A stretch of 64,000 nt of DNA from Squalus acanthias. Taxonomy: Eukaryota. The translations under genes and the position numbers were made by a program. Location: positions 97,900,001-97,964,000 of the forward strand of contig CM059432.1 of the NCBI GenBank assembly GCA_030390025.1, in the 5' to 3' direction. The stretch's first letter is position 1. The number at the start of each line of letters is the position of its first letter. The notes beneath the pieces are model-generated. The model was not told the origin of the DNA. It ran no database searches and saw nothing but the letters and a program-made list of their open reading frames with translations. Shown one piece after another: positions 2,531 through 64,000 of the stretch.

Positions 2531-3310
2531 GTGGATCCAAAACACGATGCCACCTTCCATACCAGTGCTTCCGACATGTCTTCCTTTTTCCTCAACCAAG
2601 GATTCCCCTCTACGGCCCTTAACCGTGTCCGTTCTATCTCCCGCACTTCTGCCCTCACCCCTGCCCCTCCCTCCCGGAACCACGATAGAGTTCCCCTTGT
2701 CCTCACCTTTCACCTCACCAGCCTCCACATTCAACAGATCATCCTCCGCCATTTCCGCCACCTCCAGCGTGATCCCACCACCAAACGCATCTTCCCCTCA
2801 CCTCCCCTTTCAGCATTCCGTAGGGACCACTCCCTCCGCGACACCCTAGTCCACTCCTCTATCGCCCCCAACACCCCTTCCCCTTCGCCCGGCACCTTCC
2901 CGTGCAAACGTAGGAGATATAACACATGCCCTTATACCTCCCCACTTCCCACTGTCCAGGGCCCCAAACACCCCTTCCAGGTGAAACAGCGATTTACTTG
3001 TACTTCTTGCAATTTAGTATACTGTATTCGCTGCTCACAATGTGGTCTCCTCTACATTGGGGAGACCAAACGCAGATTGGGTGACCGCTTTGCGGAACAC
3101 CTCCATTCAGTCCGTAAGGGGGACCCCGAGCTTCCGGTCGCCTGTCATTTTAATTTACTGCTCCACTCCCACTCAGACCTCACCGTCCTCAGCCTCTTGC
3201 ATTGTTCCACGAAGGCTCAGCGTAAGCTCGAGGAACAGCACCTCATCTTTCGATTAGGCACTTTACAGCCCTCTGGACTCAACATAGAATTCAACAATTT
3301 CAGATCATAA
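2531..3310 (+). pseudogene. Penelope C-terminal GIY-YIG endonuclease ORF remnant
   Basis: FTCTSCNLVYCIRCSQCGLLYIGETKRRLGDRFAEH...EQHLIFRLGTLQPSGLN. Confidence 0.9.
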
Positions 3311-3612
3311 CATATATATATTTATATATTTTTTATCCACACTTTTGTTCTGTTCTTCTCTCCCACAGGGCAGCTGTCTTCCATTCTGCCAGCGCAATTT
3401 ACACTTCATCTAGAGCCATCCTTTGTTTCTTAACCTGTCCCATTACCATCCCCTTTTGCGTTGAATATCTCTTAATGTCTCTCAATGTCTCTTAATCTCT
3501 CCTGCCTTCCAGCCTATCACAGGCCTTCCCTTTGGTTCTTCCATCCCCTCCCCCATTTCCAAGCCACAACACTTGCTTAAAAATCTGTTCCATTTCCTGC
3601 TTTTTTCCAGTT

Positions 3613-3646
3613 CTGACGAAAGGTCATCGACCTGAAACATTAACTC
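3613..3646 (+). ncRNA. Minimal hammerhead ribozyme motif in Penelope pLTR (inverted, mutated copy at about 2035-2068)
   Basis: CTGACGA-AAGGTC-atc-GACCT-GAAA core with stem II; hammerhead motifs are known in Penelope pLTRs. Confidence 0.7.
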
Positions 3647-4446
3647 TGTTTCTCTCTTCACAGATGCTGCCTGACCTGCTGAGTATTTCCAGCATTTTCT
3701 GTTTTTATTTCAGATTTCCAGCATCTGCAGTATTTTCTTTTTGTTTAAAGATATTTGAGGGAGTGGGTGATTAAGAGATGGACTGCAGTCTTACCATGTT
3801 CTGTACTTTCCTATGTTCTTATGTTGAGTTTAAGTGAGCCAGTGTGAATTATTTCTCCAGCCCCTTGGACAAATTGGAACCGTCCCCTCAGACATCTTTA
3901 AAAGTGAGAGTAATTGGCAGGACCAGACTGCTGATAAATCAAGCCCAGAAATGCAGTCTGCCATTGGTCCATCCCTGAGATAAGGGCCACCTCTGTCTAA
4001 AGAGGCTATAAATGTAAGCAGCTATGTACATCACAGACCCCAGGCCTTGAGGTGGCATTTAGAAAAAGTATGAGAATAGGATAAAGGAGAGGCTGTAAAC
4101 TGACAAGCAGTATGCAAAGGCGTGAATCTTAGGTTTGTGTTTCACCAAATTGTTCCAGAATCATAATAATGTGTCACAGACTAGTTCATCTGTATGCATT
4201 AGATACAGGAAGGGGGAGGAAGTGCTGCCTTGGTTTTAAGAACATTTTGATTATTGGGTGGTATTATATCTAAAACAGTGAGCCAGATAACATATACAAA
4301 TATTGAAGTAGAAATTTGTCTTGGGTAGGAGCACAAACCATGTGCTCGTGAATCTGCAGCCTGTTTTACACTCAGCCGTTTATTCATTTTCCATTGAAGC
4401 CAAAGGAAAAGAAACATGGGTGGAGTGCAAAACAGGCTGCTGCCTA

Positions 4447-7959: not shown

Positions 7960-9141
7960 CTATCCACTTAGTCCCATTCCCTTGTCCTTTCTCAGTGCAC
8001 TGCTTTTTTTCATTTTCAATTACTTATCCACTTCCTTTTTAGAAGCTATTGTGGATTCTGCTTCAAATACTGTTTCTGGTAGGGAATTCCATATCCGAAG
8101 AACCCGCTGTGTAAAGCAAATTTCTCCAAACCTCTCCCATCATTTTTTGGTCATGATCTTAAATTTATGTGTTCTATCTAGTGACTCACCAACTGGTGGA
8201 AATAATTTTTCCTGATTTACTTCATTAAAACCCTAAGGGGGAAAAATTGAATCACACCCCCTTTGGGGCGCTAACTTCGCTACTTTTAGCGCCCCGAAAA
8301 AATTAGCAGCCCCGCGGCCGAAATTGAGTGGTAGCGCCCCAAGAGGGAAGCGGGGCGCTACTGGAAGCGCCCCGCCTCCCTCTTGGGGCGCTTCTTAAAG
8401 GGGAGGGGCCTTGCGCAGCCTGACCCGGAGCCCAGCTGGGCCACCGGGATCAGAGTGCCGGCAAAAGAGCCCTGGCACTCAAGAGAAGTGCCGGGCTCAT
8501 GGAGCGCAGCCGGCACTCTGCGGGTGGGGGGGGGGGGGGGCGCTGCTCAGGAGGCCAGGGACGGCAGCAGAGGCAGGTACTGGCAGGCGGCCAGCAACAA
8601 AAATGGCCACCCGGCACCTCGCCTTTAAATAGTGCCGCCCCGGCCGCAGGTAGGCACCCGTGACCCCATAGCGTCCAGCGGTGAGTCAGGGGGCACTACT
8701 GAAGATCACAGCCGGGGCGCGAGCGGGGCGCTGCGCATGGCTATGACGTCATCGCCAGTGGCGCAGCGCCGCAGGGCGATAATGGTTACCGCCGCCACTA
8801 ACCTCCTGCTAAATTTCACGGTAGGCGTTGGTGGCGCCGCACCCGGGCGCTAGTTGCTTTGCGCCCCGTTAGCACCCTCTTAGGGCGCTAACGGGAGGCA
8901 CAAAGCAACCAAATTTTTCCCCCTAATTGTCCTAATGAAAAGAGGCCCAATTTGTCTAGTCTATTTTCATAACTGAAGCCTCTCAGCCCTGGTAGCATCT
9001 TAGCATCTCTCCTCATAGGACAACCATAGCATCTCTTCTGTACTCTCTTCATGACCTTGACATCCATCGCAAAGTAAGGCAACCAAAACTGGGCATAATA
9101 TTCTAACTGCACCCTAACCAACGATTTGTACAGTTTCAGCT
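7960..9141 (-). mobile_element. Old CR1 fragment (continues about 21069-21225 and 22037-22250), host of the MITE and the provirus
   Basis: LVRVQLEYYAQFWLPY...LRGFSYENRLDKLGLFSL; CR1-like sequence resumes after the right LTR; boundaries approximate. Confidence 0.7.
8237..8923. mobile_element. Harbinger MITE (partial relative at about 44645-45079)
   Basis: TIR GGGGGAAAAATT / AATTTTTCCCCC, TAA TSD on both sides, inserted in a CR1; right end resembles the autonomous Harbinger end at 31013. Confidence 0.85.
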
Positions 9142-10865
9142 TGTAAGGGATTCCTGACCCTGCGTGTCTCGCAGCCTGTGAGATTCACGCGGCTCTGTGC
9201 AGCCTGTATGTCAGTGCGGGTCTAGGCCTGGTTGCCTGTTCTGGTCTCCAGCCAGTCTGGGAACACTAGACACACCTGTGAGTGGTTCGAATCACTCTCC
9301 CTTACGGTTCTAGACACTGGACTTAGATGCGAGAGCAGTAATGGAGATAAAACTCATGTAGACTTGGTTTGAATGGTACGAAATGGAAAATCTTTATTGC
9401 ATGATACTTAAAATTATGAAATACATGTCATAAGCACAGATTAATGACAGTACAATCTTACAAACAGTTATATAGTCGATCTTAGGGAAACGAGGAACGA
9501 ACGGCACAAAGTAAATAGGGGCACACATTACAAATATCCTTAATCCTTAAACCCTCCCCTATCAATATCTATCCTAAACTAGCTTCGTAGGATCTCGAGA
9601 CTCATGCTCACCCCTCGTGATAACTCGGAGAAATTCCGAATAGCTGATCGGATGTTTTTCACCGCAGCACCCACGTGTCGGTCAGGAGATCTCCTGGTCC
9701 CACTTGTTTACTTGCTTCTGCTGCTCCGGCTAGCAGGCTGGACCGTCTGCTGTGATGAAGACCTGTGTTGGTTGGCTTAACAGGTACTCTTGGAGCACAG
9801 TTGTCAATATCATCGATACGATGTGTTTTCACGTTCCAGTCTCCTTAGACACAGTCCCGTTATCGTCGATGCAATATGTTTTTGTTAAAAGTTCAAAATA
9901 GAAATCTTCCTGGCGAGGAAAACTTGGCTAATCGACCTACAGGCGCGGTCGGGATTTACTGACCGTGGCGATGGATATGGTCTTCCTCTCTTCTCATCTC
10001 ATCTCATCTCATCTCATCTCATCTCGGGCCTTCGGTTCCGCTGCCAGTTACCAACATAGGTCTTCGTTACGCGACACGAGGTAGATCCGAACGGATCAGA
10101 AAGTTCAACAGTCTTTTCAGAAGAGGCAACAGGCAAGCAGAAGCCCAACTACGAGTACACAGGAGCAGCCACGAGGTTACGAATCGACCGGATAAAAACA
10201 CAGGAGCAAGCGAGCGAATGCAAGAGCAAGAGAGAGAATGGACGGTTTGGAGCCTGCAATTATAGTGCAAAAATCTTCCGTTTCCCGCCCAACTATAATG
10301 TCCATTCTTTTGTTTAGGGTTTGGCGCCCAAATGTCTTGTATGGGTGATCTCCGTTCTTAATGGGTTTCGGGGCTACTCGTAAATGTCTGAGTACCTGTT
10401 AATATTTCTCCCATTGTTAAATCGGTCGGTGTTCTCCCTGGAGGGGTTTGGGGCTTCCAAGTGTCCTGTATAACTACCTGCTAACGGCTCTCTCATCGTA
10501 GAGTCGTTGGGATTTTACATATTAATGTCCTTTGGATGGGCCCTTGATTACTCGGTACAATGGCTTTCCTTTGTACCTGGGAGACCGATTCCAGTATCTA
10601 TGTTTATACTGCAAACCCATAATGTCTCGTGTATTATCTTCACTGTGCTGCATCTTAATCGATCTTGCACAAATGTTTATTGGAACGCCATCTTGTCTGC
10701 CTGTTGAAAAGTCTAGAATGTTCTGTCACGAGGTGCGGCGGCCATTTTACAGGCTGCTTGTGTCCAATTTAAACCTGCCAGCATTCTGCTGAAATAAAAG
10801 CTGTTTGAACGAAACTTTGTGTTTTCTCCTTATTAATCAAATCGCGATATATTGCGAATTCTACA
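9142..10865 (-). repeat. 3' LTR (1724 bp)
   Basis: Direct repeat of 19341-21064; minus-strand AATAAA at 9393-9398; (CATCT)n microsatellite at about 9993-10025. Confidence 0.97.
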
Positions 10866-10877
10866 GTCCCTCCTGTT
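10866..10877 (-). promoter_or_regulatory. Short polypurine tract
   Basis: Minus strand AACAGGAGGGAC immediately before the TG of the 3' LTR. Confidence 0.6.
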
Positions 10878-11304
10878 GATGCGAATAACTCCGCTTATCG
10901 TATCAAAAATCATAGTGGTGAGCAATATTATCTCGATTTCTCTCCGAATCCAGTAAATTAATCCCATAATTTTTAACTTAGCTAGGGTCTCCGTGTCGTC
11001 CTCATTTCCCAAGAAAATCACATTTTATATCACCGTAGGCATTATTTGCCCTTAACTTACACCACTTGTTTTCCTTCCCGGCGTAACCAGGCCGATACCT
11101 CTCGTATCACCTGTATATTTGTCTTTTATTCAGGGAAAGGAAAAAACAAAACCCAAAACCAAACAATCAACACCATCACCAAAATAATCAAAACCCCAAC
11201 TCTTAAAACATGTCGAGTTCCCAACGTATTTACAATCTCTGAAAATCTTATGAGTACAAACTTCCGCGGCGCACGCGGCGAGCGGGAGTGACGCCATTTT
11301 CCGA

Positions 11305-12714
11305 TTACACGGTGCTCTCATCGTGCACGCGCACGTAACGTTCTCGCCACTCTCCCGTGTTTTCATGTTTGGTGAGGCGTTTGTCTCTTTTACAATGTAT
11401 GACCAATAGGTACACTACAATAAACACTTGACATACGACTAAAATGTGGGAGGCTATTCTGATCCATGAAGGTACTTCAATATTAGTGAACAGATTCCAC
11501 CACGGTGGAACTACTATGTCCAGAATGTCTGTTCCTATTTCGACAGTTTTCTGCTCTAATGTATAAAAATGTTTCTGTGATACCGCGACGGCTTTCAGAA
11601 GTTTGGTTAAGTGTTCAGGGAGAGGGGGAATGAGGTATCCAAAATGCGCGACAAATCGCTGCAAGTCGGTGAAATTCTCTTTTACTGTGAGATGAAAAGC
11701 AGTGAACGCATCGTTCACCAAACCCCTTCTTTGCCTCCCTACTTGATCCAAAACTTCCTGTGGTGCGGTGTACAAACTTGTTTTATCAATTTCTGCAAAA
11801 TCAAACTCGTAAAATTGTCTGAACATCTTGGTCAACAGGACCTGATACAACTGTTCCGTCTTTTTGGGGCACCACTCTGGTAACCGCACCTCAGTGAGAT
11901 TTAAAATCACCGAGGCCACCGCGTAATGTACTCCCTGAAATAGTATCTGGTCTGTGGGGACCAGTACCAAACCATTCCCGGGTCCCTTACTAGTTTTAGG
12001 GCACCCTTCTTCCTCAGCCAGAACCACCGGAATCGTGGGCGGGGCTTTGCGTGGGCGCGTAATGAGTTCAGTGGCATTTACTGGGATCGGGGAGAATGGG
12101 GCTCCGCACCCCCTGGTGCTCGCATCCCACCTCATCCCCTGTCCGTTATCCTGCCATTGATTAATAAAAAATATGGAGATGCCTTTGGGGCAAACGTACT
12201 TTGACCCCCACATACATACATAAATTCCCTCATCCGGTTCCCACCATTTGTCCCAACAGACTTTCACTTGTCCGTCTGTCCCCGTAATTGTCCGATGGGT
12301 ATTATTACCCAGTCGTTCCCACTCGACCGAAGAGTTTCTCATAGTTTTGCTCAGCTTTCGCAGCCACCACCATCGGCTCAATGGGACCTTCCCACTACAA
12401 GTCAAACAAATCCGTTTGCCGACGGTGACGCTGATCCTGGGTGCGATGATCCTTACTTTGGGGCACAGTAAAGAAGTCTCTTGGTAGGCAAACCCCGAGG
12501 TGCTAGAATACTCCGTTGAGTTCGTTCCCAGCCATCCTGGCCACCTTCCCTTGTGGAAATAGGTGCTGGTCCCCTCTGCCTTCCGTCTTCCGGTCCCATC
12601 CACCGCGATGGGGGCCGTGTCCCCGGAACATCCAAACACCACGACATCCTTGGTGCGGCCTCGATAGGCCAATCCACATCCGATTGCCACGAGCAATACT
12701 AGAATTCGTTCCAT
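11305..12714 (-). CDS. env: Env-like glycoprotein, 469 aa: signal peptide, Ig-like domain, furin site RQRR, C-terminal transmembrane helix
   Basis: MERILVLLVAIGCGLA signal; LTC...WWWLR...DEGIYVC; RQRR/GLVN; IASHILVVCQVFIVVYLLVIH; candidate splice acceptor (ctgatcacag) 13 nt upstream of the ATG. Confidence 0.85.
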   Translation of the reverse strand: MERILVLLVAIGCGLAYRGRTKDVVVFGCSGDTAPIAVDGTGRRKAEGTSTYFHKGRWPGWLGTNSTEYSSTSGFAYQETSLLCPKVRIIAPRISVTVGKRICLTCSGKVPLSRWWWLRKLSKTMRNSSVEWERLGNNTHRTITGTDGQVKVCWDKWWEPDEGIYVCMWGSKYVCPKGISIFFINQWQDNGQGMRWDASTRGCGAPFSPIPVNATELITRPRKAPPTIPVVLAEEEGCPKTSKGPGNGLVLVPTDQILFQGVHYAVASVILNLTEVRLPEWCPKKTEQLYQVLLTKMFRQFYEFDFAEIDKTSLYTAPQEVLDQVGRQRRGLVNDAFTAFHLTVKENFTDLQRFVAHFGYLIPPLPEHLTKLLKAVAVSQKHFYTLEQKTVEIGTDILDIVVPPWWNLFTNIEVPSWIRIASHILVVCQVFIVVYLLVIHCKRDKRLTKHENTGEWRERYVRVHDESTV

Positions 12715-13001
12715 CCTTCCTTGGTTCCTGTGATCAGATAGAATGAGGTAGCCAGCCTCGCAAGAGTCTCTGGCTTTTGTGAAGGGTGAGCGGGTCCCCT
12801 GACCTCGCCTCACGTAAACTTCAACGTTTGCTGAATAAACTTCAACTAAACCTAACTTTAAAACTCCCATCATTTTATCGTTTTCTGTTAAAAACACTAC
12901 AAACTTAGCCTTATTAAAAAAACTATAAACTTAACCTTGAACTATAAACTTAAAACTTAACTTCTTACTATACAGTGCCGCCCGTTCTCAGGGCGGCCCC
13001 T

Positions 13002-13598
13002 TTAAATTCTGAGAAGGCTGCTGCGAGCTCTTCCCGACGGTGGGAGGGCACTGACCCTTCCCTCTGATCTGCCGCAGCCTGTTGCTGCGCTGACCCTTCC
13101 CTCTGATCTGCCGCAGCCTGTTACTGCTGCGATGTGGCCGGTCTGTACCCGGGTTATCTTAACCTGAAGTCTACGCCTTGGGGCAGTCTGGGGACATGAC
13201 CACATCCTCCTGGGCTGGGGTTCTCTACCTGACCTACGGGGAGTTGCTATGGGCGGGGGTTCCGTGACGGACGGACCGGGTTCCGAGACCTCCAACGGGA
13301 TGACCTGGGGTTCCATCACAGTCGCCGGCTCCGCCTCCGCTGACTCCGCCTCCCTAACCTCGGGGCTGGCAGTTCGTGGCTCCGCCCTGCTCGGCCCAGC
13401 AGGCGGCCCTTCACTCGTGATCTCTGCCTCCCCTGAGGACTGGACGTTCAAAGCGGGCGGCCACATCTCTGGGAGCCACACCGGTACTCTTTGTGCTCCT
13501 ATGGCGGCTGGCCCTGCCTCCTCTAGCTCCTCCCTCCTGTCCTCGGGACCTGCAGCTTGTGTGTCCACCCTGTGTGGATCTCTACCTATAGGCCCCAT
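13002..13598 (-). CDS. Pro/Glu-rich 198-aa ORF between pol and env (frameshifted Pol tail or accessory ORF)
   Basis: Open frame, low complexity, PRRSGREPQP motif, 39-nt tandem duplication. Confidence 0.4.
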   Translation of the reverse strand: MGPIGRDPHRVDTQAAGPEDRREELEEAGPAAIGAQRVPVWLPEMWPPALNVQSSGEAEITSEGPPAGPSRAEPRTASPEVREAESAEAEPATVMEPQVIPLEVSEPGPSVTEPPPIATPRRSGREPQPRRMWSCPQTAPRRRLQVKITRVQTGHIAAVTGCGRSEGRVSAATGCGRSEGRVSALPPSGRARSSLLRI

Positions 13599-13615
13599 TC
13601 CCTCCAGACCGTTCC

Positions 13616-16600
13616 TCAGGAACCACCCGTCATCATCACTATGCTCATAGCACTATCCTCATCTGACCAGGGTACCCTGGGTTCTTCCTCATCTAACCCC
13701 CAACTCCAGAAAAACGCTGCATGATCGTCCGGGATGTCCCTTCCCCTGATGCAAGCTGCTATGCCTGCCTGTGTGCCTTGTGGTCCTACCTGGGGCTGTG
13801 CTTTCCCATTGGCGGGATTTACCCCTGTAGTTTTCCCCTGCGCACCTGGCTGGTACAGTTTGCATTGGTTTATGTGGAACCACTTAGTGCGCCGAGGTAC
13901 TTTTACGGCGTAAACCATGGGACTCGCCTTGTCTACAATGTTGTAGGGTCCCATATACAGTGGTTCCAGACTCCCTACTCTGGCGTAGTTTCTGACCATG
14001 ACCTGGTCTCCTACTTCCCACTCCCGCGTTTTGCGGGGTTCCAGCAACAAGCGATTGCCCTGATGCTGCCTTCCCATGTTCCCAGCCGCCTGCTCATAAA
14101 CTTGCTTCAGGCGCTCCAAGAGAGTCTGGGCGAACTTGTCCCTGCTTATCTCTTGGAGCTGACCCTCAGTGAGCACCGGTGCTAGCACATGGGTGGGGGT
14201 TCGCATGAGCCTCCCAGTCATTACCTCGTGCGGGGAGTACCCCGTACTTTTTGACTGACTGGCCCGGACCCCCATGAGGACTAAAGGCAGAACTTCCGCC
14301 CATTTTTGGGGCGAGTTCCTAGTCTCTTTCCTCAATTTCTCCTTCAGGGTCCGGTTCATACGTTCAACAATCCCGGATGACTGGGGATTGTGTGCTACGT
14401 GCCACTTCCCTTCAATGCCCAAAAGCATGAGGGTGTTCTGCATCACCTGGCCGGTGAAATGACTCCCTTGGTCTGACTCCACAAAACGGGGGAGTCCCCA
14501 CCGCGAGAACACTTCCCGGACCAAGATTTTTGCTGTACCCAGTGCCGTAGCTGTTCGACAAGGGAAGGCTTCCACCCACTTGGAAAACACATCCACCAGG
14601 ACGAGGCAGTACTTATAACCTCCCTGGGTGGCGGGCAGGGGTCCTATATAGTCGATCTGTATCGACTGCCATGGTCCCTCTACCCTTCTTACGTGTCCCA
14701 TGGGCACCTTCCTTTTCTGGGGGTCTGGGTTGTTTGCAGCGCACACAAGACAGTTTGCACAGAACTCGCGGACTTGTTCCCTGAGCCCTGGCCACCATCC
14801 CGCTTGCTCTACCCGTTGCCAGGTAACCTCGGGCCCGGGGTGCCCTGCCCCTGGTCCCTCGTGAGCCAACTGGAGGAATTCCCTCCTGTGCTGCTGCGGC
14901 ACAACCCACTGCTCCTCGCGGAACAGCATGCCTTCCTTAACTGAGAGGGTTGCCGTACTGTACGGACCTTCTACCCGCCTCCCCTCAGCAATCGTTTTTA
15001 GGACTGCTTTTAGGGCGGGATCCTGGGTTTGGACGGTCTTGAGGTCTAGGGGCAATGCTACCCTGGTGTTCCCGGGATTCCCATCCCCGCCTCGGACCGC
15101 TGCTATGGGTCCGGCCCTATAGGGGTTCCAGAAAGTGCCGTCGCGGGCACCCTCCCTGGCTAGCGCATCCGCCTGCCGGTTGCCCTCCCCACGGGGCTCT
15201 GTGGAGGAGTGAGCTTTCACCTTATGGATGAAAATCTCTCCTTCCTCCCCTACTGCTGCTGCTAAGATCTTTTCCAGCAAGGGCTTCACCGTTAAAGGTC
15301 GCCCGTCCGCGGAGGTGTATCCGCGGCGGGACCAAATGGCCAGGTATTCCGTACACGAATTGCAGGTGAACATACTGTCCGAGCAAATCGTGTATGGGGT
15401 TGGGAAAATGTCTGGGTGGGTCACAACGTACACCACGGCAGACAGCTCAGCCTGCTGCGCGCTCATGGTGCTAGGGAGCTTGATCGCCAGGGCAAGGTCT
15501 GCCGCAGGGTCATAAACTCCACACCCTGTGAGTCGCTCGCCAGCAGACACTGTGCTAGACCCATCAACATAAATCTCGCGCCCAGTGGGATGTATCCCGG
15601 CCCGTAAACCTATGTTGACGTCCCACACCCCTTCCACCGAACACCGGTGGGCTGTACCGGGGTATACCAAATTGGCCGCAAGCCTGGGCTCGCAAAGACC
15701 TTTTACTCTAAGATCCAGCTGGGAGAGAAGAAGGGTCCAACGCGCAATGCGTGCGCTGCTTACGGTCCCGACTTTAATCCTCCCATCCAGAAGCATCTTA
15801 GTTGGTGTGTGATGTGTGAGGAGAGTGATGGGAGAGAGCCCTGTGAAGATCGCTGATCTTTTCACAGCCCAATGCGTGGCTAAAAGGTGCCTTTCGCAAT
15901 TGGAGAAACTTCTCTCCACATCCGTTAATACCCTGGATGAATAGACAACCGGCCTCAGCTTGCCGTGACGCTCTTGGAGCAGCACGGCGCTTAAGCTGTC
16001 TCCGCTGGCAGCTACCTCCAGGAAAAACTCCTTCCCCCGATCTATGGCCCCTAAGGCTGGCGCGGTCTGCAGATCCCTTTTTAACTTCTCGAAGGCTGCT
16101 TGGCAGCCCTCGTCCCAAAGCCACTCCACCCCCTTATGGAGGAGTCGGAGGAGCGGCGCCGCTGTGGCCGCATAATCTTCGATAAAATCCCTGCAGTAAC
16201 CGGTCAGTCCCAAGAAGGACCTCACACCCCTTACGTTGTTGGGAATCGGTAATTCTTGCACCGACTCCCTCCTTGCTTTGTCTATGGCTCTTTCCCCAGC
16301 GCGTATGGTCAGTCCCAGGAATTTTACTTCCCGCTGACCGATACGTGCTTTCTTAGGGTTTATTTTAAAACCCTTTCTCGCTAACAGTTCCAATAACTCG
16401 TCCAGTAGTGGTCCGTGCTCCTCCCTTGAGTCCGTAAATAGGAGCAAATCATCCACATACTGTACTATCTGATTGGGCTGACTAAACTCCTTTAAACTTC
16501 CTGCCATACACTGATGAAAAATACTGGGGCTATTGTGGAAACCCTGTGGCAGACAGTTCCACGTGTACTGTTGCCCTTTGAAAGTAAAGGCGAACTTGTA

Positions 16601-17524
16601 CTGGTCCTCTCGCCGCAGCGGGATGGACCAAAAACCGTTCGAGATATCCAGCACCGTGAACGTGGTCGCGGACGCTGGGATGCTCCCTATTAGGTCAGCA
16701 ACTGCTGCTACTGTGGGCGCGCAGGCGGGAATGTTACCGTTAAGGACTCTGTAGTCCACCGTGGCTCTCCACGAATTATCCGGCTTCCTAACCGGCCATA
16801 ATGGGGAGTTCACGTGTGTGGCTATCGGCCTCAACACGCCCTGCTGCACCAAGGAAGACATTGCTGTCTCCATATCGGGTTCTGCTTCTTTGGGGAAGTT
16901 ATACTGCTTTTGGGGTCGGGTCATGGGGTCCCCATCTACGCTGACCTCAAACCCGACCACTCTCCCACAATCGTGCTTGTGGGTTGCAAACGCGTGCATA
17001 TTATCTGACACGTACGTTTGCATGTCCGTTGGGACATCTGCGACCATAAGCCTGAGGTTGTAGCCTCCGGATGGCTGTACGGTACACAGGACCCCTGTTT
17101 CTTCCTCCCCCGGAATCACTATTACCTCGCCCTTTTCACCTTTAGCCCCCCAGAGACAGTGATTTCTGAGGTCCACGAGGATCCCGTGTCCCGCTAGGAG
17201 ATCGGACCCGAGAATACCTCTTCCACCCCCCTTTTGCCATGCCATCAGTATACACTTCCACTTAAGGCGAAGTGTTCCTAAACGAATGGATAGCGGAAGG
17301 GAAAACGTGCCAGCCTGTTCTTTTCCTGTGAACCCTGCCAACGTGAATGGGACCTTGGTAGATAGCGGCGAGTCAAAAGGGTTATCTGTATGGATTATGG
17401 TGCAAGAAGCTCCCGTGTCCAACAAATAACTGCCCTTCTGTTTCTCTACCTCCATCTCCACCACAGGTCGCCTCCACGCATCATAGCTAAGCGGACACAG
17501 GTAGACGGGCTGTGCTGGTTCTAG
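13616..17524 (-). CDS. pol: Pol: protease, RT, tether RNase H, RNase H, integrase
   Basis: LLDTGAS; LDISNGF, LPQGFHNSP, YVDD; degenerate RNase H; IYVDGSS...AQQAEL...SDS...KVKAH...GNRQAD; HHCC, IDYIGP, SDQGSHF, SSGIVERMN, GPY. Confidence 0.97.
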   Translation of the reverse strand, partial: LEPAQPVYLCPLSYDAWRRPVVEMEVEKQKGSYLLDTGASCTIIHTDNPFDSPLSTKVPFTLAGFTGKEQAGTFSLPLSIRLGTLRLKWKCILMAWQKGGGRGILGSDLLAGHGILVDLRNHCLWGAKGEKGEVIVIPGEEETGVLCTVQPSGGYNLRLMVADVPTDMQTYVSDNMHAFATHKHDCGRVVGFEVSVDGDPMTRPQKQYNFPKEAEPDMETAMSSLVQQGVLRPIATHVNSPLWPVRKPDNSWRATVDYRVLNGNIPACAPTVAAVADLIGSIPASATTFTVLDISNGFWSIPLRREDQYKFAFTFKGQQYTWNCLPQGFHNSPSIFHQCMAGSLKEFSQPNQIVQYVDDLLLFTDSREEHGPLLDELLELLARKGFKINPKKARIGQREVKFLGLTIRAGERAIDKARRESVQELPIPNNVRGVRSFLGLTGYCRDFIEDYAATAAPLLRLLHKGVEWLWDEGCQAAFEKLKRDLQTAPALGAIDRGKEFFLEVAASGDSLSAVLLQERHGKLRPVVYSSRVLTDVERSFSNCERHLLATHWAVKRSAIFTGLSPITLLTHHTPTKMLLDGRIKVGTVSSARIARWTLLLSQLDLRVKGLCEPRLAANLVYPGTAHRCSVEGVWDVNIGLRAGIHPTGREIYVDGSSTVSAGERLTGCGVYDPAADLALAIKLPSTMSAQQAELSAVVYVVTHPDIFPTPYTICSDSMFTCNSCTEYLAIWSRRGYTSADGRPLTVKPLLEKILAAAVGEEGEIFIHKVKAHSSTEPRGEGNRQADALAREGARDGTFWNPYRAGPIAAVRGGDGNPGNTRVALPLDLKTVQTQDPALKAVLKTIAEGRRVEGPYSTATLSVKEGMLFREEQWVVPQQHRREFLQLAHEGPGAGHPGPEVTWQRVEQAGWWPGLREQVREFCANCLVCAANNPDPQKRKVPMGHVRRVEGPWQSIQIDYIGPLPATQGGYKYCLVLVDVFSKWVEAFPCRTATALGTAKILVREVFSRWGLPRFVESDQGSHFTGQVMQNTLMLLGIEGKWHVAHNPQSSGIVERMNRTLKEKLRKETRNSPQKWAEVLPLVLMGVRASQSKSTGYSPHEVMTGRLMRTPTHVLAPVLTEGQLQEISRDKFAQTLLERLKQVYEQAAGNMGRQHQGNRLLLEPRKTREWEVGDQVMVRNYARVGSLEPLYMGPYNIVDKASPMVYAVKVPRRTKWFHINQCKLYQPGAQGKTTGVNPANGKAQPQVGPQGTQAGIAACIRGRDIPDDHAAFFWSWGLDEEEPRVPWSDEDSAMSIVMMTGGS

Positions 17525-19336
17525 TCATGGGGCACTATTAGACGGTCCTGCGGCACCTACGGGGCCGGTTGCGACCGCCACCTGTCCACGCGCATTCAAG
17601 ACCAGCTTGCGCATGGCTCCTAACACTGCTTCGAGGTCGTCGGGAGGGGTGGGTGCCTTGGCTTCCTTAGCCGGGACCGGCGCCTGGGCTCGCACCGCGG
17701 GATTTTTATCCTTGGAATCCTTCCAAGGGTTCCTGCAATGCTTGCGCCAGTGCCCTGTCTTCCCACACCCGTAACAAGCATTACTTGCCTGTGGGGCGCG
17801 ATTACCCTCCTGATGCCACTCTCTTTGATACGGGGCTGCGGGTCGTACCTCATGTACTCTTCCCTTAAGGGGACGTGTCGCCATACCCCTTATATTGCGA
17901 TAACCTAACGTGAGTCGATTCAAGACCGACTCTTCCGTAATGTTGAGGTCATTGGGATCAAACCATGCTTTTGCCTGCTCTCTAACGGCTGGTAAACTGT
18001 TGGCTATTATGCACCTAAGCCAATGAGTTAGAGCGGCGCCTTCCACATCTTCGCGCTCGGGCGCACCTAGACAGCTGCGCTCATATACTGGCCACAGCCT
18101 GTCGGCAAAAACCTTCGGGGGTTCTCCCTCCATCTGCACTGTCTGTCCCACTCTAGCAAACGGACCTCCGTCGTTCGCCCCCAACACTTCTAGGACCTCA
18201 TTCTTTAATTCCTCATAACTCTTGTTTCCCCTCTTGCTCTCGCCTGAGAGACACTGAAGGACCGAGCTGTCTAATGAGAACAGCAGCATTTTTGCTGTCT
18301 CCCCATCATCGCAGCCGTTAATGGCTGCGGCTTGCTCAACTTCTCTGAAATGTACGGAAGGGTCGTCTATCTCGGTCAGCTTCCGTACGTGATTTATCAT
18401 AGCTCTCAGCTGATGTGAACTGTGAGGCAACACCAGCTGTCCGAGGAGATCCCCCGGTTCTTCCCCACCGTTTCTGCTTGGGCCCCTTTTAATACCCGTT
18501 ACTGGATACAGCGATCCCTTTTCTACTTCCTTTTCAATGGGCTCTTTTGTTTCTTCCATTGCTTCCTCCCTAACCCAGGTTTCTGAATAGCTGGGTGGCG
18601 CGGAGGGCGCAGTGGCTACTACTTCTTCTGCTTTACTTGGTGGGGATTTTCTAAATCTCTCATTTACTAGCGGCTGGTGCGCCGACGGATTGATAAGGCA
18701 CACCATGCCGTTCGCATTGTTCACGGCCTTTTTGAGGTTCTCTATCTCCCTTTGACAGGCGCTATGATCGGCTCCCTGAAACTTATCCTCAAGGGCCAAC
18801 TTATATGCCGACCTAACCCCCATTAAGCTCTCTTCTTGAGTTCTTATCTGGGCAGCTTGGCGGTTACATCTTTCCTTTAACCTGCTCTCATTCAATTTTG
18901 CCTCAGTGACCTGGCACTCGAGATAATCTATCCTTGTTTTAAGGTGACTGGAGACTTCCTGGCTTTCTTGGTGTAACTCATTTAAATTCTTAATGAGCAC
19001 CTCCCCTCCAGAAACCTTCTCCTCCATTTCTCCCTCTAAATGACTGATTCGAGCTACTAGCGCTGTAATGGTCTGGTTTGAAATCTGAACCTGCCTTTTG
19101 TAGCACATAAGCCAGACTGCTTTCTCAAGTGTCTTTCTATGTTCTTTACTATCTGTCCACCTTTCAGCTGCCTCTAGTGGGCTCTTATCCGCTAACAATT
19201 CACTTATCCACTTCTTAGTTAGATTAACCTTTCCAAACACATAATCCGCTATCTTTTCCTGCATAACATTTCGTACAGTCATTCCAAAATCTAACACACT
19301 ACCCTCTCGCTGCCAGTGTCCTGCCGCGGTCGCCAT
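17525..19336 (-). CDS. gag: Gag, 603 aa, with coiled-coil-like N-half and one CCHC zinc knuckle
   Basis: CYGCGKTGHWRKHC; PSAPPSY late-domain-like motif; ATG in AAAATGG context (a later Met start cannot be excluded). Confidence 0.92.
   Translation of the reverse strand: MATAAGHWQREGSVLDFGMTVRNVMQEKIADYVFGKVNLTKKWISELLADKSPLEAAERWTDSKEHRKTLEKAVWLMCYKRQVQISNQTITALVARISHLEGEMEEKVSGGEVLIKNLNELHQESQEVSSHLKTRIDYLECQVTEAKLNESRLKERCNRQAAQIRTQEESLMGVRSAYKLALEDKFQGADHSACQREIENLKKAVNNANGMVCLINPSAHQPLVNERFRKSPPSKAEEVVATAPSAPPSYSETWVREEAMEETKEPIEKEVEKGSLYPVTGIKRGPSRNGGEEPGDLLGQLVLPHSSHQLRAMINHVRKLTEIDDPSVHFREVEQAAAINGCDDGETAKMLLFSLDSSVLQCLSGESKRGNKSYEELKNEVLEVLGANDGGPFARVGQTVQMEGEPPKVFADRLWPVYERSCLGAPEREDVEGAALTHWLRCIIANSLPAVREQAKAWFDPNDLNITEESVLNRLTLGYRNIRGMATRPLKGRVHEVRPAAPYQREWHQEGNRAPQASNACYGCGKTGHWRKHCRNPWKDSKDKNPAVRAQAPVPAKEAKAPTPPDDLEAVLGAMRKLVLNARGQVAVATGPVGAAGPSNSAP
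19318..19335 (-). promoter_or_regulatory. Primer-binding site, tRNA-Arg(TCG)
   Basis: Plus strand GTCCTGCCGCGGTCGCCA matches the recalled 3' 18 nt of vertebrate tRNA-Arg(TCG)+CCA; 5 nt from the LTR. Confidence 0.85.
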
Positions 19337-19340
19337 TTTC

Positions 19341-21064
19341 TGTAAGGGATTCCTGACCCTGCGTGTCTCGCAGCCTGTGAGATTCACGCGGCTCTGTGCA
19401 GCCTGTATGTCAGTGCGGGTCTAGGCCTGGTTGCCTGTTCTGGTCTCCAGCCAGTCTGGGAACACTAGACACACCTGTGAGTGGTTCGAATCACTCTCCC
19501 TTACGGTTCTAGACACTGGACTTAGATGCGAGAGCAGTAATGGAGGTAAAACTCATGTAGACTTGGTTTGAATGGTACGAAATGGAAAATCTTTATTGCA
19601 TGATACTTAAAATTATGAAATACATGTCATAAGCACAGATTAATGACAGTACAATCTTACAAACAGTTATATAGTCGATCTTAGGGAAACGAGGAACGAA
19701 CGGCACAAAGTAAATAGGGGCACACATTACAAATATCCTTAATCCTTAAACCCTCCCCTATCAATATCTATCCTAAACTAGCTTCGTAGGATCTCGAGAC
19801 TCATGCTCACCCCTCGTGATAACTCGGAGAAATTCCGAATAGCTGATCGGATGTTTTTCACCGCAGCACCCACGTGTCGGTCAGGAGATCTCCTGGTCCC
19901 ACTTGTTTACTTGCTTCTGCTGCTCCGGCTAGCAGGCTGGACCGTCTGCTGTGATGAAGACCTGTGTTGGTTGGCTTAACAGGTACTCTTGGAGCACAGT
20001 TGTCAATATCATCGATACGATGTGTTTTCACGTTCCAGTCTCCTTAGACACAGTCCCGTTATCGTCGATGCAATATGTTTTTGTTAAAAGTTCAAAATAG
20101 AAATCTTCCTGGCGAGGAAAACTTGGCTAATCGACCTACAGGCGCGGTCGGGATTTACTGACCGTGGCGATGGATATGGTCTTCCTCTCTTCTCATCTCA
20201 TCTCATCTCATCTCATCTCATCTCGGGCCTTCGGTTCCGCTGCCAGTTACCAACATAGGTCTTCGTTACGCGACACGAGGTAGATCCGAACGGATCAGAA
20301 AGTTCAACAGTCTTTTCAGAAGAGGCAACAGGCAAGCAGAAGCCCAACTACGAGTACACAGGAGCAGCCACGAGGTTACGAATCGACCGGATAAAAACAC
20401 AGGAGCAAGCGAGCGAATGCAAGAGCAAGAGAGAGAATGGACGGTTTGGAGCCTGCAATTATAGTGCAAAAATCTTCCGTTTCCCGCCCAACTATAATGT
20501 CCATTCTTTTGTTTAGGGTTTGGCGCCCAAATGTCTTGTATGGGTGATCTCCGTTCTTAATGGGTTTCGGGGCTACTCGTAAATGTCTGAGTACCTGTTA
20601 ATATTTCTCCCATTGTTAAATCGGTCGGTGTTCTCCCTGGAGGGGTTTGGGGCTTCCAAGTGTCCTGTATAACTACCTGCTAACGGCTCTCTCATCGTAG
20701 AGTCGTTGGGATTTTACATATTAATGTCCTTTGGATGGGCCCTTGATTACTCGGTACAATGGCTTTCCTTTGTACCTGGGAGACCGATTCCAGTATCTAT
20801 GTTTATACTGCAAACCCATAATGTCTCGTGTATTATCTTCACTGTGCTGCATCTTAATCGATCTTGCACAAATGTTTATTGGAACGCCATCTTGTCTGCC
20901 TGTTGAAAAGTCTAGAATGTTCTGTCACGAGGTGCGGCGGCCATTTTACAGGCTGCTTGTGTCCAATTTAAACCTGCCAGCATTCTGCTGAAATAAAAGC
21001 TGTTTGAACGAAACTTTGTGTTTTCTCCTTATTAATCAAATCGCGATATATTGCGAATTCTACA
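19341..21064 (-). repeat. 5' LTR (1724 bp)
   Basis: Direct repeat of 9142-10865; candidate GC box (GGGCGGG) followed by TATAAT at about 20490-20458 on the minus strand. Confidence 0.97.
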
Positions 21065-21494
21065 AGCTTTACCTCTTTGTGCCCTCATGTACGATATCTT
21101 GGATCCCAAAGACTATTTTGCAGCTCTATCACTTTGTCCTGCCACTTTTAAAGATTTATGCATCTCATTTCTTAAGACTCTTAATTCCTCGATTTCTTTT
21201 TCAAACGAAATACTATTTAGTTTATGGCCCTGAAATGATTTGGCCATTCAAGTGCCAGAACTCCAGTGGTTCCGGCAGGAGTCCAACAAAACAGTTGCAA
21301 ACTCCACCTGGACCTGGAAATGCCAGGTCCTGGCATAACTTTGGAGTTTCCAGTGGCTTTGTTTGGGAGTGAAAAGTCTACCCATCCCAAACAAGGCCAC
21401 TGACATAGACGGGGTGGGACCAAGGGCAGGGATTCATTGCACTGGATATTCCTACTCACTTCCTCAGAGGAACCCAACGTGAGTTTGGAAGTTC

Positions 21495-25500: not shown

Positions 25501-26973
25501 ACCTCAGGAGCAGGCCGAGATGGATCATCCACTCGGTACTTCTGGCTGAAGATGGTTGCGAACGCTTCAGACTTGTCTTTTGCAGTCATGTGCTGGGTTC
25601 CGCCATCATTGAGGATGGGGCTGTTCATGGAGCCTCCTCTTCCCGTTAGTTATTTCATTGTCCACCACCATTCACGACTGGATGTGGCAGGACTGCAGGG
25701 CTTTGATCTGATCGTTGGTTCGATGATTGCTTAGGTCTGTCTATGGCGTGCTGCTTCCACTGTTTAGCATGCATATAGAATCATAGAATGGTTACAGCAC
25801 AGAAGGAGGTCATTCGGCCCGTCAAGCCCGTGCCAGCTCTCTGCAAGAGCACTTCAGCTAGTCCCACTTCCCCGCCCTTTCGTCGTAACCCTGCAATTTT
25901 TTTTCCTCCAGGTACTCATCCACTTCCCTTTTGAAAGCCACAATTGAGTCTGCCTCCACCAACCTCTCAGGCAGTGGATTTCAGATCCTAACCACTTGCT
26001 GCGTGAAAAAGCTTTTCCTCATGTTGCCTTTGGTTCTTCTGCCAATCACCTTAAATCTGTGTCCTCTGGTTCTTGACCCTTCCACCAATGGGAACTGTTT
26101 CTCTCTATCTACTCTGTCTAGACCCCTCATGGTTTTGATCACCTCTATCAAATGTCCTCTCAACCTTCTCCGCTAAGGAGAACAACCCCAGCTTCTCCAG
26201 TCTATTCACGTAACTGAAGTTCCTCATCCCTGGAACCATTCTTGTAAATCTTTTCTGCACCCTCTCTAAGGCCTTCACATCCTTCCTAAAGTTCTGTGCC
26301 CAGAATTGGACACAAGGGGCTGGATTTTACCAGCCCTGAGGAGGTGTGTCTGGAGGCGGAACTGCTGGGAAAATCCCCAAAAATGGGAGTGGGTCCCAAA
26401 CAGGTAGTTAACAGGCAGTTAAGAGGCTTTTTCCCATTTTTCCACTACTGCTGCGGGCTTCCCGATGTCAGGGAATCCCGCCAGGATAAGTGAGGCGTGA
26501 TGTGGATGTACTGTAATTTTTGTGTATATATGACAGCTGCAGAAGTGGTTTAAAGGATTCAATGGGACACTGGTGAGTATCAGAGGTAAGGAAAAGTTAT
26601 GAAAGTAATATTTAATGGGGTAGAAATTAGGTCGCGCCCCATTTGGGGCGCAAATATCGTCCGCGCGCAAATATTAGCGCCTGGCGCTAATTATCGGCAC
26701 TGACAGGAAACTTCACTTTTACCGCCCCGGGAGGTGAGTGGAGTGCTAAATTAGGCGCTGCACACCTCTCTTAAGGCGCAAAGGCCTAGGAGTGAGGCGC
26801 TAACTCAGCGCACGAGCGCAGCGCAGCTGCTGCCAGTTAGCGCGGGAACACAGACACACTGGCGCCGGACACTTCTTAAAGCGGGGGGGGCCACTTGCTC
26901 CCCAGCCACACCCTGCTCATTGCAGCCTTGAATCTCAGCCTGGAGAGACCTGTAATCCATTTTGCTGCCAAGC

Positions 26974-29045
26974 ATGGAGAGGGTGAGAGAACGCGCTCAT
27001 CGCTTCACCGAGCGGGCCTTGGATGCTCTGGTTGACGCAGTGGAGCGCAGACGATGCATGCTGTTCCCAGAGAGTGGCAGGAGGCCTTTGCCACGCGAGT
27101 TCAGAAGAGTGTGGAGGGAGGTGGCTCAGAGCGTCTCCTCCAGGAGCATGGTGCCCAGGACCCATGTCCAGTGCCGCAAAAAGTTCAACGACCTCACTCG
27201 GGTCGTCAGGGTGAGTGGCTTTTTCTCAATACCTCTCCATCCCTCCATCTCAACCTCACTCTATGGCCAGAGGGTCTTAAAACCCCAATGCACAACACTC
27301 ATCCAACACCTATGGCCCTTTCATCAAACACACACACACATTCCACACTTTGCATACAGTAAGGGCTATTCACCTATGGGAGGCACATCAGGCAAGACCA
27401 TGGCTGCATACAGTAAGGGCTATTCACCTATGGGAGGCACATCAGGCAAGACCATGGCTGCATACAGTAAGGGCTATTCACCTATGGGAGGCACATCAGG
27501 CAAGACCATGGCTGCATATTGTAAGGGCTATTCACCTATGGGAGGCACATCAGGCAAGACCATGGCTGCATATTGTAAGGGCTATTCACCTATGGGAGGC
27601 ACATCAGGCAAGACCATGGCTGTATATTGACTCAGATGCTGTCCTTTTTCTTGCAGGCTAAGCTGGCTCATAATCGGAGACAGCAGCAACGGACGGGTGG
27701 AGGGCGGCTTCAGCTGCAACCCCTCAGCGATCTGGAGGAGCGCGTCCACAGGATTGTGGCAAGCCGGGTGATCGGTCCCGTCGCCACTGGAGACGCCGAC
27801 CCCGTTGTGGACAGCAATGGTAAGGTCATCACCTTTTTGTCCTCTGTCCTTCCACTTGTCCCTCACAATACCAGCCTTTGACACTTTCAATCCAACTTGC
27901 TAACTCGCTGCACTTATTCCTCCCTTACTGCCACCCTGTCCTCACGCTAAAGCCACTCTTGTACCTCCCTGCTTTCAGATGGTGATTCACCAGCTGAGGA
28001 GATGGTCCCTGAAGCTGCCACTGGGAGTGATGCTGCAGCTGAGGAGGAAGAGGAAGCCGGAGCATCAGTGCCACCCTCTCCCGAGGAAGCCCATGGCCAC
28101 ACTGGGAACACGCCTTCCCCGGAGGGGAGCAGGGGGGAAGGGGCTGATGATGGTGAAGTTCCAGGACCCAGCGGGCTGCAGCAACGCCATGGGGGGGGAG
28201 GGAAGAACGGGGGAGCAGGGGGGAAGGGGCTGATGATGGTGAAGTTCCAGGACCCAGCGGGCTGCAGCAACGCCATGCGGGGGGGGAGGGAAGAACGGGA
28301 GCCTTCTCCCCAGAGGGAGAGTATGCCAGACACTCCTAATGCAATGGACGCAGAGGAGGAGCGGCTGATTGCAGAAATGAACAGCCAGGCGGTGGTCATG
28401 CACACTGAGCTCATGGGTGCAGTGGGAAGGGTGCCAGAATGCATTGAGGCACTGGCAAGGAGTGTGGAGCACTTCGCTGTAGCACAGGCGGATGCCACAC
28501 TAAAGCTTACTGCTGCAATTCAGTCACTGGCTGCCAGGAACCCATCTGAGCCTGCTCTCATGCAGACTCAGATTGAGGCCACGCGAGCACTGACTGCTGC
28601 CATCCTCGATGGTTCGTGCACATGTCCCCGGGGCTGTCACCGCGCCGCAGCAGGCCAGCAATCTGTTCTCAGGCAAATTGCTCCGGATGCTGAAGTGCTG
28701 CCCCGTGGGAGTGCCAGTGTGTCGGGCGAGCAGGGAGTTGCTGTCCTCTCTCACGATGACAGCATTCCTGCTGCCAACACTGTCACTTCTCCACTGCACT
28801 TGCCACCGCCTGTAGGACAGACTGCTGCCGCCCATGCAGAGTTGGTGCAGTCTGCAGCCGGGCCCTCCAGGCCCAGAAGTGGTCGAGGCCGTCCTTCAGG
28901 GGCATCTGCAGTGTCAGGGTCTGACAAGCAGCAGCCTTCCACCAGCCTTGCTGCAGCCACTGAGGTCCCATTACGGAGGAGCAGTAGGGTTAGAAGGGGG
29001 GAAGTGCGCAAGGGAAGGAGATCACCCTCGAAGGGCAAAAAGTAG
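26974..29045 (+). CDS. Harbinger Myb/SANT-like protein, 3 exons (26974-27210, 27657-27819, 27979-29045), predicted 488 aa
   Basis: RFTERALDALV...WREVA...RTHVQCRKKFNDL; GT-AG introns whose phases join into one open frame. Confidence 0.85.
27351..27620. repeat. 54-bp minisatellite x5 in intron 1 of the Myb gene
   Basis: Unit tgcatacagtaagggctattcacctatgggaggcacatcaggcaagaccatggc. Confidence 0.95.
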
Positions 29046-29339
29046 GAGGTGTGCCAAAATGCTGGTCATTTTTTTATTAAAGGCCGAGGTTCATGGCCCA
29101 ACTTTTGTTTAGTGTTTTGGACATTATCTCCAGGTTGTGAGAACCAGTTATGTTATTGACTGTTTTTTTGTGTTTATTTCTATGAGTTTGTCATGAGGAA
29201 TTGACACACACAGAGTTTGTACAATAAATAAGTTTCTGTATTCAAAATATACATGGCTGGTGGTTGGAATTATTGGTGCCTTGGCCGGCTTAGGGGTTGC
29301 GTGCTGGGTTGATTCGTGTTTGTAGCACTGGCAGGGGTC

Positions 29340-58384: not shown

Positions 58385-58409
58385 GTAGAGGTTGCACTAT
58401 GCTTCTGAG

Positions 58410-63368: not shown

Positions 63369-64000
63369 TGTAGAATTCGCAATATATCGCGATTTTATTA
63401 ATAAGGAGAAAACACAAAGTTTCGTTCAAACAGCTTTTATTTCAGCAGAATGCTGCCAGGTTGTTCAAAGTGGACACAAGCAGCCTGTAAAATGGCCGCC
63501 GCACCTCGTGACAGAACATTCTAGACTTTTCAACAGGCAGACAAGATGGCGTTCCAATAAACATTTGGGCAAGATCGATTAAGATTCAGCACAGTGAAGA
63601 TAATACACGAGACATTGTGGGTTTGCGGTATACAAATAAATACTGAAATCGGTCTCCCAGGTACGAATGAAAGCTATTGTACCGAGTAATCAAGGGCCCA
63701 TCCAAAAGACATTAATATGTAAAATCCCAACGACTCTACGATGAGAGAGCCGTTAGCAGGTAGTTATACAAAACACTTGGAAGCCCCAAAACCCCTCCAG
63801 GGAGAACACCGACCGATTTAACAATGGGAGAAATATTAACAGGTACTCAGACATTTACGAGTAGCCCCGAAACCCATTAAGAACGGAGATCACCCATACA
63901 AGACATTTGAGCGCCAGACCCTAACAAAAGAAAGGACATTAAGGTTGGGCGGGAAACGGAAGATTTTGTACTATAATTACAAGCTCCAAACCGTCCATCT
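63369..64000 (+). repeat. Diverged LTR of the same provirus family, opposite orientation, runs off the window end
   Basis: Begins TGTAGAATTCGCAATATATCGCG, the reverse complement of the LTR end at 21064; scattered substitutions and a small indel. Confidence 0.95.

Follow-up and report, generated by a model that had tools for sequence, protein, structure and literature searches.

What kind of retrovirus left the provirus at positions 9142 to 21064 of the 64,000-nt stretch of the Squalus acanthias assembly GCA_030390025.1 analyzed here (contig CM059432.1, positions 97,900,001 to 97,964,000; hereafter the window), and how recently did it arrive? An earlier note, made from the letters alone, had described a very young, near-complete provirus whose mixed traits best fitted the lokiretroviruses or a sister lineage. 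We conclude that the element is probably a defective copy, inserted recently in a shark-type genome, of a very large and very young family of endogenous retroviruses (ERVs) that belongs to the snakehead retrovirus (SnRV)-like grade (class III, clade Huo).

The element lies on the minus strand. Its parts, including the two long terminal repeats (LTRs) and the target-site duplication, are as follows:

19341-21064, minus strand: 5' LTR, 1724 bp, from pairwise LTR comparison
~19668-19673 and ~19592-19597, minus strand: TATA-like box and AATAAA, respectively, within the 5' LTR, from motif positions
19318-19335, minus strand: primer-binding site, 18 nt, TGG plus 15 nt matching tRNA-Arg(TCG)
17525-19336, minus strand: gag, 603 codons, terminated by a single UGA
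17521-17527, minus strand: gag-pol readthrough context UGA-CUAG
17325-17501, minus strand: predicted long stem downstream of the gag stop, in the protease coding region
13616-17524, minus strand: pol, 1302 codons, in frame with gag after the single TGA
13002-13652, minus strand: acidic, proline-rich Pol C-terminal tail, out of frame here and in frame in sibling copies
11305-12714, minus strand: env, 469 codons from Met, with a 942-nt in-frame deletion at 11695/11696
12214-12453, minus strand: immunoglobulin (Ig) V-like domain at the Env N-terminus (~aa 88-167), from profile and fold matches
10867-10874, minus strand: short polypurine tract adjoining the 3' LTR
9142-10865, minus strand: 3' LTR, 1724 bp, with 1 substitution relative to the 5' LTR
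9138-9141, no strand: target-site duplication AGCT, left copy, from flank comparison
21065-21068, no strand: target-site duplication AGCT, right copy, from flank comparison

Exact alignment agreed with the earlier description of the LTRs: both are 1724 bp long with termini TG...CA, their sole mismatch is 9347 A versus 19546 G, and AGCT is duplicated perfectly at both ends of the element. The positions of the TATA-like box and AATAAA imply a U3 that would be long, at ~1.4 kb. A scan of the 1724-bp LTR found no sense open reading frame (ORF) of 50 aa or more starting from Met, and between env and the LTR every sense ORF is shorter than 100 aa. The primer-binding site begins 5 nt past the 5' LTR and is overlapped by the first gag ATG; its 15 nt complement, without a mismatch, the final 15 bases of the tRNA-Arg(TCG) genes of the host. 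The matching tRNA-Arg(TCG) gene occurs in long tandem arrays with a period of ~1.6 kb (contig C26, ~39.0-41.9 Mb), where it adjoins tRNA-Ser(GCT); there are 522 pattern matches overall, some of which are tRNA-Ser(AGA). Gag runs from an N-terminal coiled coil through a PSAP motif and a capsid-like region to one CCHC knuckle. The Pol domains are unbroken, comprising protease, reverse transcriptase (RT; LPQGFHNSP, YVDD), tether, second RNase H and integrase (HHCC, core, GPY/SH3). Env in this copy consists of a signal peptide, the Ig-like domain, an F2-like part, the furin site RQRR, the deletion, heptad repeat B, a transmembrane helix and a short tail.

Is the provirus intact? All three genes had been described as uninterrupted. 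This holds for gag, with its 603 codons and one UGA, but env lacks 314 codons and the tail of pol is frameshifted. The comparison was made with a panel of 20 sibling copies drawn from the 40 best RT matches in the genome. The 942 nt (314 codons) missing from the window env at 11695/11696 are present in 19 of the 20 siblings, and the twentieth has its own deletion overlapping the same gap. The deletion is in frame, starts ~10 residues past the furin site and takes most of the fusion core. A 2-nt microhomology marks its edges in 17 of 18 siblings with located anchors, and its junction occurs only once in the whole genome, so it is private to the window copy. A spliced intron was considered for this gap and rejected, as no register gives GT-AG. 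In Pol, 108 residues follow the integrase GPY motif, compared to 262-326 in all 20 siblings, because a frameshift near 13650 shifts the tail out of frame and cuts off ~205 codons. An intact provirus was rejected on the env deletion and the pol-tail frameshift. The env of the window provirus is open, yet its fusion core is mostly lost, so that this Env presumably cannot fuse membranes. We infer that this copy is a recent, fusion-dead member of its family with unbroken enzyme domains.

To which retroviruses is the family related? SnRV was the sole confirmed relative among 23 pattern matches in an alignment search of a viral collection, whereas a single-protein scan of the collection found no relative; among the 8 best loci examined of 81 matches, no Loki or foamy sequence was recognized. 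The entry taken as SnRV has the 10,688 nt given in the accessible part of PMC12193657 and the UAG-GGC junction given in that of PMC13517186. It encodes one CCHC knuckle, gag and pol in frame across a stop, LPQGFH, YVDD and a GPY motif; the CCHC Gag, the in-frame gag-stop-pol arrangement and the GPY integrase are thus present in both elements. The RT of the window is 44% identical to that of SnRV over 247 residues. Over 237 columns aligned by eye, it shares 109 residues with SnRV (46%), 89 with murine leukemia virus, 85 with feline foamy virus (~36%) and 78 with Loki-Ame (33%). In one search the highest RT identity (44% over 212 columns, ranking 36th by E-value) was to Q88285_1, which is probably SnRV Gag-Pol; a literature search for this identifier gave nothing. 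According to the accessible text of PMC4299795, a zinc finger and GPY may both occur in ERVs related to SnRV. Every one of the traits that had seemed mixed is present in SnRV, and the mixture is therefore the SnRV layout; the accompanying description, a retrovirus outside Ty3/Gypsy with two RNase H domains that is not a foamy virus, stands.

The placement favored earlier would make this the first chondrichthyan lokiretrovirus, which we consider very improbable. The element does have two RNase H domains, and by eye its Env core shares 10 of 28 residues of the first heptad block with Loki-Xtr Env. Its best Pol matches carry the automatic label "NYNRIN-like", and the Loki integrase is close to CGIN1 (PMC7947760, accessible part). 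However, two RNase H domains (tether plus RNase H) are common to all retroviruses, and an F-like Env is found also in SnRV, walleye viruses and foamy viruses and is therefore not diagnostic of Loki. Motif B reads PFG in every one of the 24 published Loki RT rows (PMC7947760 supplement) but PQG in the window and in SnRV, and the by-eye RT identity is 33% to Loki-Ame versus 46% to SnRV. Loki-Xtr Env begins at the F core without an Ig arm. By signature and identity, judged by eye, the RT lies outside the Loki clade; the element is probably not a lokiretrovirus and does not extend the host range of that group. The accessible part of PMC7947760 screened 5 chondrichthyan genomes and marked none as positive, if its asterisk denotes positives.

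Other described groups fit less well. In the Pol tree, retroviruses including the element are split from Ty3/Gypsy at 100/100, and two RNase H domains also set it apart from that group. ERV-L-like rows, labeled by their motifs, form a separate 100/100 branch with the element outside, and the element differs from ERV4 and ERV-L by its 4-bp duplication (theirs is 5-bp) and by its CCHC and GPY. Foamy pol is not known to be made by readthrough, and the element has CCHC, GPY and an in-frame stop junction. Foamy viruses have a Gag without a zinc knuckle and an integrase without GPY (PMC4299795, accessible part). Odin retrotransposons are described in the accessible text of PMC9040795 as sea-anemone elements with dual RNase H and no env; the env present here sets the element apart from them by description rather than by RT comparison.

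Several results weigh against an SnRV-like placement. The top RT relatives, from frogs, coelacanth and unnamed records, are unclassified elements at 49-54% identity. The clade joining the element and these frog and coelacanth relatives to SnRV has support of 42/87, appears in 55% of bootstrap trees and is unresolved in another tree; the trees contained no Loki or foamy rows, so that the comparison with Loki was by eye. For both reasons the sister lineage given as a second option in the earlier note may still hold. Gag matches SnRV at E 3e-4 over the coiled coil only, and no match to the window primer site was found in SnRV within 3 mismatches. The SnRV LTR is 518 bp compared to 1724 bp here, and the accessory ORFs of SnRV, including 3'ORF (PMC12193657, accessible part), have no counterpart found in this element. 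One possibility consistent with these observations is that the family represents its own deep, genus-level lineage of sharks, skates, coelacanth and frogs, sharing ancestral traits with SnRV without being its sister. The closer Pol relatives (49-54% RT identity versus 44% for SnRV), the unresolved tree base, the differences from SnRV in LTR length, stop codon and primer site, and the occurrence of the Ig-headed Env family in seven named chondrichthyans and the frog Pelodytes all suit this explanation. Against it, gene layout and Env homology are common to SnRV, and SnRV-like ERVs are a broad known vertebrate clade, present in all major vertebrate lineages (PMC6001957) and including CmiERV lineage I of the elephant shark, estimated at 75 million years (PMC4422223; both in the accessible text). 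A separate deep lineage is therefore possible but doubtful, and we retain the SnRV-like assignment. The earlier note had asked whether the RT falls within a described family. The layout is SnRV-like, which answers the question largely in the affirmative, although the tree clade with SnRV reaches only 42/87; nesting within Ty3/Gypsy is excluded at 100/100. An unnamed retrovirus in metagenome assemblies, with an RT 40% identical to that of the window, a CCHC Gag, an in-frame UAG and a 579-codon ORF in the env position, groups with SnRV at 91/96 in one tree; in one copy of it, the Env gave no match.

For Env we used the undeleted gene of one sibling, which has 783 codons. The top Foldseek matches of its predicted structure are paramyxovirus and pneumovirus F proteins (E 3e-9). 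In VIA comparisons the model scored Z 8.1 against Newcastle disease virus F, with 125 residues aligned at a root-mean-square deviation of 4.3, and Z 7.8 against foamy Env; a language-model search returned F-type clusters at a score of 0.94. Residues to ~174 of the model match Ig V domains (VIA Z 7.5, root-mean-square deviation 2.5, 84 aligned), and the 19 best PDB profile matches for this region are all Ig-fold proteins (best E 7e-4). In a profile alignment with hhalign, this Env family matches SnRV Env along 288 columns (E 3e-5, probability 73%), whereas tblastn alone gave no SnRV Env match. Walleye retrovirus Envs ranked 4th and 6th in a viral library search with this Env, and foamy Env is built on an F-protein scaffold (PMC11468914, accessible part). 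Two results count against the F assignment: neither Pfam nor PDB, searched by sequence, gave an F family for Env, which emerged only in fold and feature searches, and the AlphaFold model is of low confidence (mean predicted local distance difference test score 46). These data suggest that Env would be a class I fusogen, cleaved by furin, whose core resembles paramyxovirus F and whose N-terminal Ig-like module probably binds the target cell. The remark that env does not look like a classical retroviral one is supported, the core being of F type as judged by fold search. The start of SnRV Env gave a faint hint of Ig (21 columns, E 0.18) and nothing in PDB; other retroviruses may therefore share the Ig arm.

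Relatives of this Env are found in Rhinoraja (73-76%), Pristiophorus, Rhincodon, Heptranchias, Scyliorhinus, Chiloscyllium, Heterodontus and the frog Pelodytes, and the nearest named Gag is that of the skate Rhinoraja (50%). Some ORFs of the Env family are annotated as host genes, namely GCC29952.1 of Chiloscyllium punctatum (739 aa) and one of Pelodytes ibericus (723 aa), and may be proviral or co-opted. Shark gene models for a zinc finger protein, Niban, a cadherin-related protein and fbxo15 contain Env pieces and are probably annotation chimeras or exonized proviral DNA. At least 80 genome matches to the shark fbxo15 model were listed; all but the first hit its env-like part, at 35-47%, which points to further Env families.

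How would pol be expressed? The junction UGA-CUAG is present in all 20 siblings and in all nine copies of the pol-less class described below. In subfamilies ~75% identical to the window it reads UGACUAG in 16 of 20 copies and UGACUGG in 4 of 20. Their alignments start at the stop or no more than 4 bases from it, which indicates that the signal was kept although the last part of gag diverged. UGACUA is used in alphaviruses and UGACUAG in human genes, and the retroviral contexts listed are UAGGGA, UAGGAU, UAGGGC, UGAAGA, UGACGA and UGAAGU (PMC13517186, accessible part). Readthrough of UGA-CUAG is likely. The predicted stem downstream (z -3.9 to -4.6) is a possible stimulator. Of its cells, 97% are paired, and 4 of 56 pairs are changed on both sides, a level that 62 of 500 shuffles equal. 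Support for the stem is modest, and it is not unique in the element: of 22 windows, 3 in RT/RNase H score z -2.4 to -3.4. It is weak in the most distant subfamily (8 of 10 copies weaker than or equal to -1.8) and absent from the pol-less class, where the sequence is replaced 11 codons after the stop.

How large and how young is the family? Genome counts are exact words in the 3.7-Gb assembly, for which reversed-pattern controls gave 0; such words skip diverged copies, and unplaced contigs may double-count some loci. We counted 4,477 LTR words, 2,564 LTR-primer-site junctions, 1,454 RT words (~1,450 pol-bearing copies) and 997 words of the pol-less class (~1,000 env-bearing copies). Both LTR ends were located in 14 of 20 siblings; these show 0-4 substitutions between their two LTRs, and 13 of the 14 have their own 4-bp duplication; the remaining 6, with LTR ends not located, were excluded from LTR counts. 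The single difference in 1724 bp between the window LTRs corresponds to ~0.13 million years at the mammalian rate or 1.3 million years at the shark rate assumed in PMC4422223 (accessible part), with the very wide margin of a single event. The description of the provirus as very young is supported by its own LTR pair and those of its siblings, and the copy-number check adds that there are ~2,560 proviruses. Drawing the panel from the best RT matches biases it to young copies. A second family member, ~95-96% identical and in the opposite orientation, lies at 63369-64000 and just beyond the window; its LTR adjoins the end of gag directly and most of gag is absent. There are at least two older subfamilies, ~75-80% identical in pol.

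The pol-less class emerged from a hand count of the first 100 listed LTR matches, which gave 37 pairs: 24 were ~11 kb apart, 9 were ~7.6-7.8 kb apart and 4 were other. In all nine short pairs the enzyme genes are absent, whereas gag (broken in one) and UGA-CUAG are kept. The stop is followed by an ORF of 373-393 codons, composed of a short coiled-coil repeat plus the Pol tail, and then by an env ORF of at least 815 codons. Eight of the nine have LTR pairs with 0-1 substitutions, and the LTRs of the class are 89-99% identical to that of the window.

These observations are consistent with the following life cycle. The LTR would drive a full-length RNA; Gag would end at UGA, with a fraction of ribosomes reading through UGA-CUAG to make Gag-Pol. 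Host tRNA-Arg(UCG) would prime reverse transcription, and integrase would leave the 4-bp duplications. Env, presumably expressed from a spliced RNA, would be cleaved by furin, and its Ig-like module would probably mediate attachment to the target cell. The pol-less class, with its gag, readthrough signal and env, would be copied in trans by pol-bearing copies. Env is still open in most of the sampled copies (Met to end in 14 of 20 siblings, broken in 6), which points to germ-line reinfection as the most likely route of spread. Alternatively, the copy number could have arisen by intracellular retrotransposition or by segmental or tandem duplication, with env still open simply because so recent a burst has had no time to decay. 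In line with this explanation, every copy is very young, env is broken in those 6 siblings, and some family copies are tandem or nested. On the other hand, the 13 of 14 resolved siblings with their own 4-bp duplications lie at different sites, which rules out segmental duplication for them, and env is open in all nine pol-less copies, although they lost pol and their LTRs are only 89-99% identical to that of the window. We regard this alternative as unlikely and reinfection as the better account.

Is the insertion fixed? In two other samples that share an organism label, contigs of the left flank reach position 9142 with 0 differences in 245 nt (X3) and 3 in 224 (X1), and continue past it for 598 and 486 letters, respectively, that are not element sequence. 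Position 9142 is also where the match to an empty allele should end, since the LTR begins with the same base that follows the right duplication. The left flank has no paralogue above 87%. The identity of the sequence past the junction with the right flank is inferred, which weakens the case; the evidence is strong but indirect that the site is empty in both samples, and hence that the insertion is apparently unfixed. Between 57 and 75% of the element words occur in each of at least 20 runs, which come from 10 studies and carry six organism labels or, in some cases, none, and the words in runs with other labels may come from close relatives or from cross-species spread. No run holding element words is recorded as RNA; two guessed-RNA runs were found, but they also cover the host flank and say nothing on transcription. 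A cartilaginous-fish host agrees with a Heterodontus fbxo15 exon that matches the genome at 89% over 88 aa, a match made without a bony-fish control, and with the nearest named Gag and Env relatives, which come from a skate and sharks.

A more far-reaching reading is that the element belongs to an unnamed genus-level lineage near the retrovirus base, with an Ig-capped F-type Env and alphavirus-type UGA-CUAG readthrough, that is still invading the shark germ line with thousands of copies, unfixed sites and a pol-less satellite class donating env. We hold this to be improbable as a whole; if true, the near-identical sequence under six organism labels would reflect recent cross-species spread and circulating exogenous virus. 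In a literature search that did not cover subscription journals, Repbase or Dfam, we found no description of this ~2,560-copy family (the supplements of PMC10435555 and PMC6001957 may include it), no Ig-headed F-type retroviral Env, no retroviral UGA-CUAG readthrough and no mention of the pol-less class or of the apparently empty site. A 2023 screen for still-invading retroviruses included 13 cartilaginous fishes, and its accessible text names invasions in other vertebrate groups only (PMC10435555). SnRV-like ERVs were previously known in a chimaera, the elephant shark; what remains is the large, young, apparently unfixed family with its unusual readthrough context and Env layout. With ~2,500 young copies and apparently unfixed sites, it may offer a natural system for studying endogenization in a vertebrate that evolves slowly. 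The Env is a further sign that F-type fusogens are widespread among fish retroviruses, in a compact version with an N-terminal Ig-like module, and the UGA-CUAG junction, should it prove functional, would represent a class of readthrough absent from the retroviral list in the accessible part of a 2026 review (PMC13517186).

Elsewhere in the window, a non-LTR retrotransposon at 56192-62308 (plus strand) has a CCHC ORF1, an endonuclease and an RT, with ORF2 split over two frames. A Harbinger-like DNA transposon at 26956-30572 comprises a Myb/SANT ORF and a DDE_Tnp_4 transposase, and related pieces occur at 40300-42200 and 50700-52900. A GIY-YIG ORF (2525-3310) between inverted repeats (~1970-3710) is probably a Penelope-like element.

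How does the element compare to known systems? The stop context and the predicted extended stem downstream are those of alphavirus type II readthrough, UGA-CUA(G), whereas the retroviral contexts listed in the accessible part of PMC13517186 exclude UGACUA. Lokiretroviruses (PMC7947760, accessible part) share the dual RNase H and an F-like Env with an RXXR cleavage site but differ in PFG versus PQG, in an RT only ~33% identical and in the lack of an Ig arm in Loki-Xtr Env. Foamy viruses (PMC11468914, accessible part) share long LTRs, YVDD and an F-scaffold Env, in contrast to the CCHC Gag, GPY integrase and putative readthrough gag-pol found here and an RT only ~36% identical by eye. According to the same text, the extra module of foamy Env lies between the subunits, whereas that of coronavirus spike is N-terminal, as it is here. 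Crocodilian ERV4 resembles the element as a non-class I/II ERV and differs from it in its 5-bp duplication and in lacking both a zinc finger and GPY; CrocERV31, which captured nectin3, is a precedent for Ig-like capture by an ERV, although nectin3 replaced env there while the Ig-like domain is fused to env here (PMC4299795, accessible part). SnRV shares the CCHC Gag, gag and pol in frame over one stop, the RT motifs, tether plus RNase H, the GPY integrase and the Env core. It differs in its Env ORF (1134 codons versus ~780 aa), its stop context (UAG-GGC versus UGA-CUAG) and its primer-site sequence; in the present element Gag starts at the primer site. Within the SnRV-like ERVs, the elephant-shark CmiERV is estimated at 75 million years, in contrast to the thousands of very young copies in the present genome.

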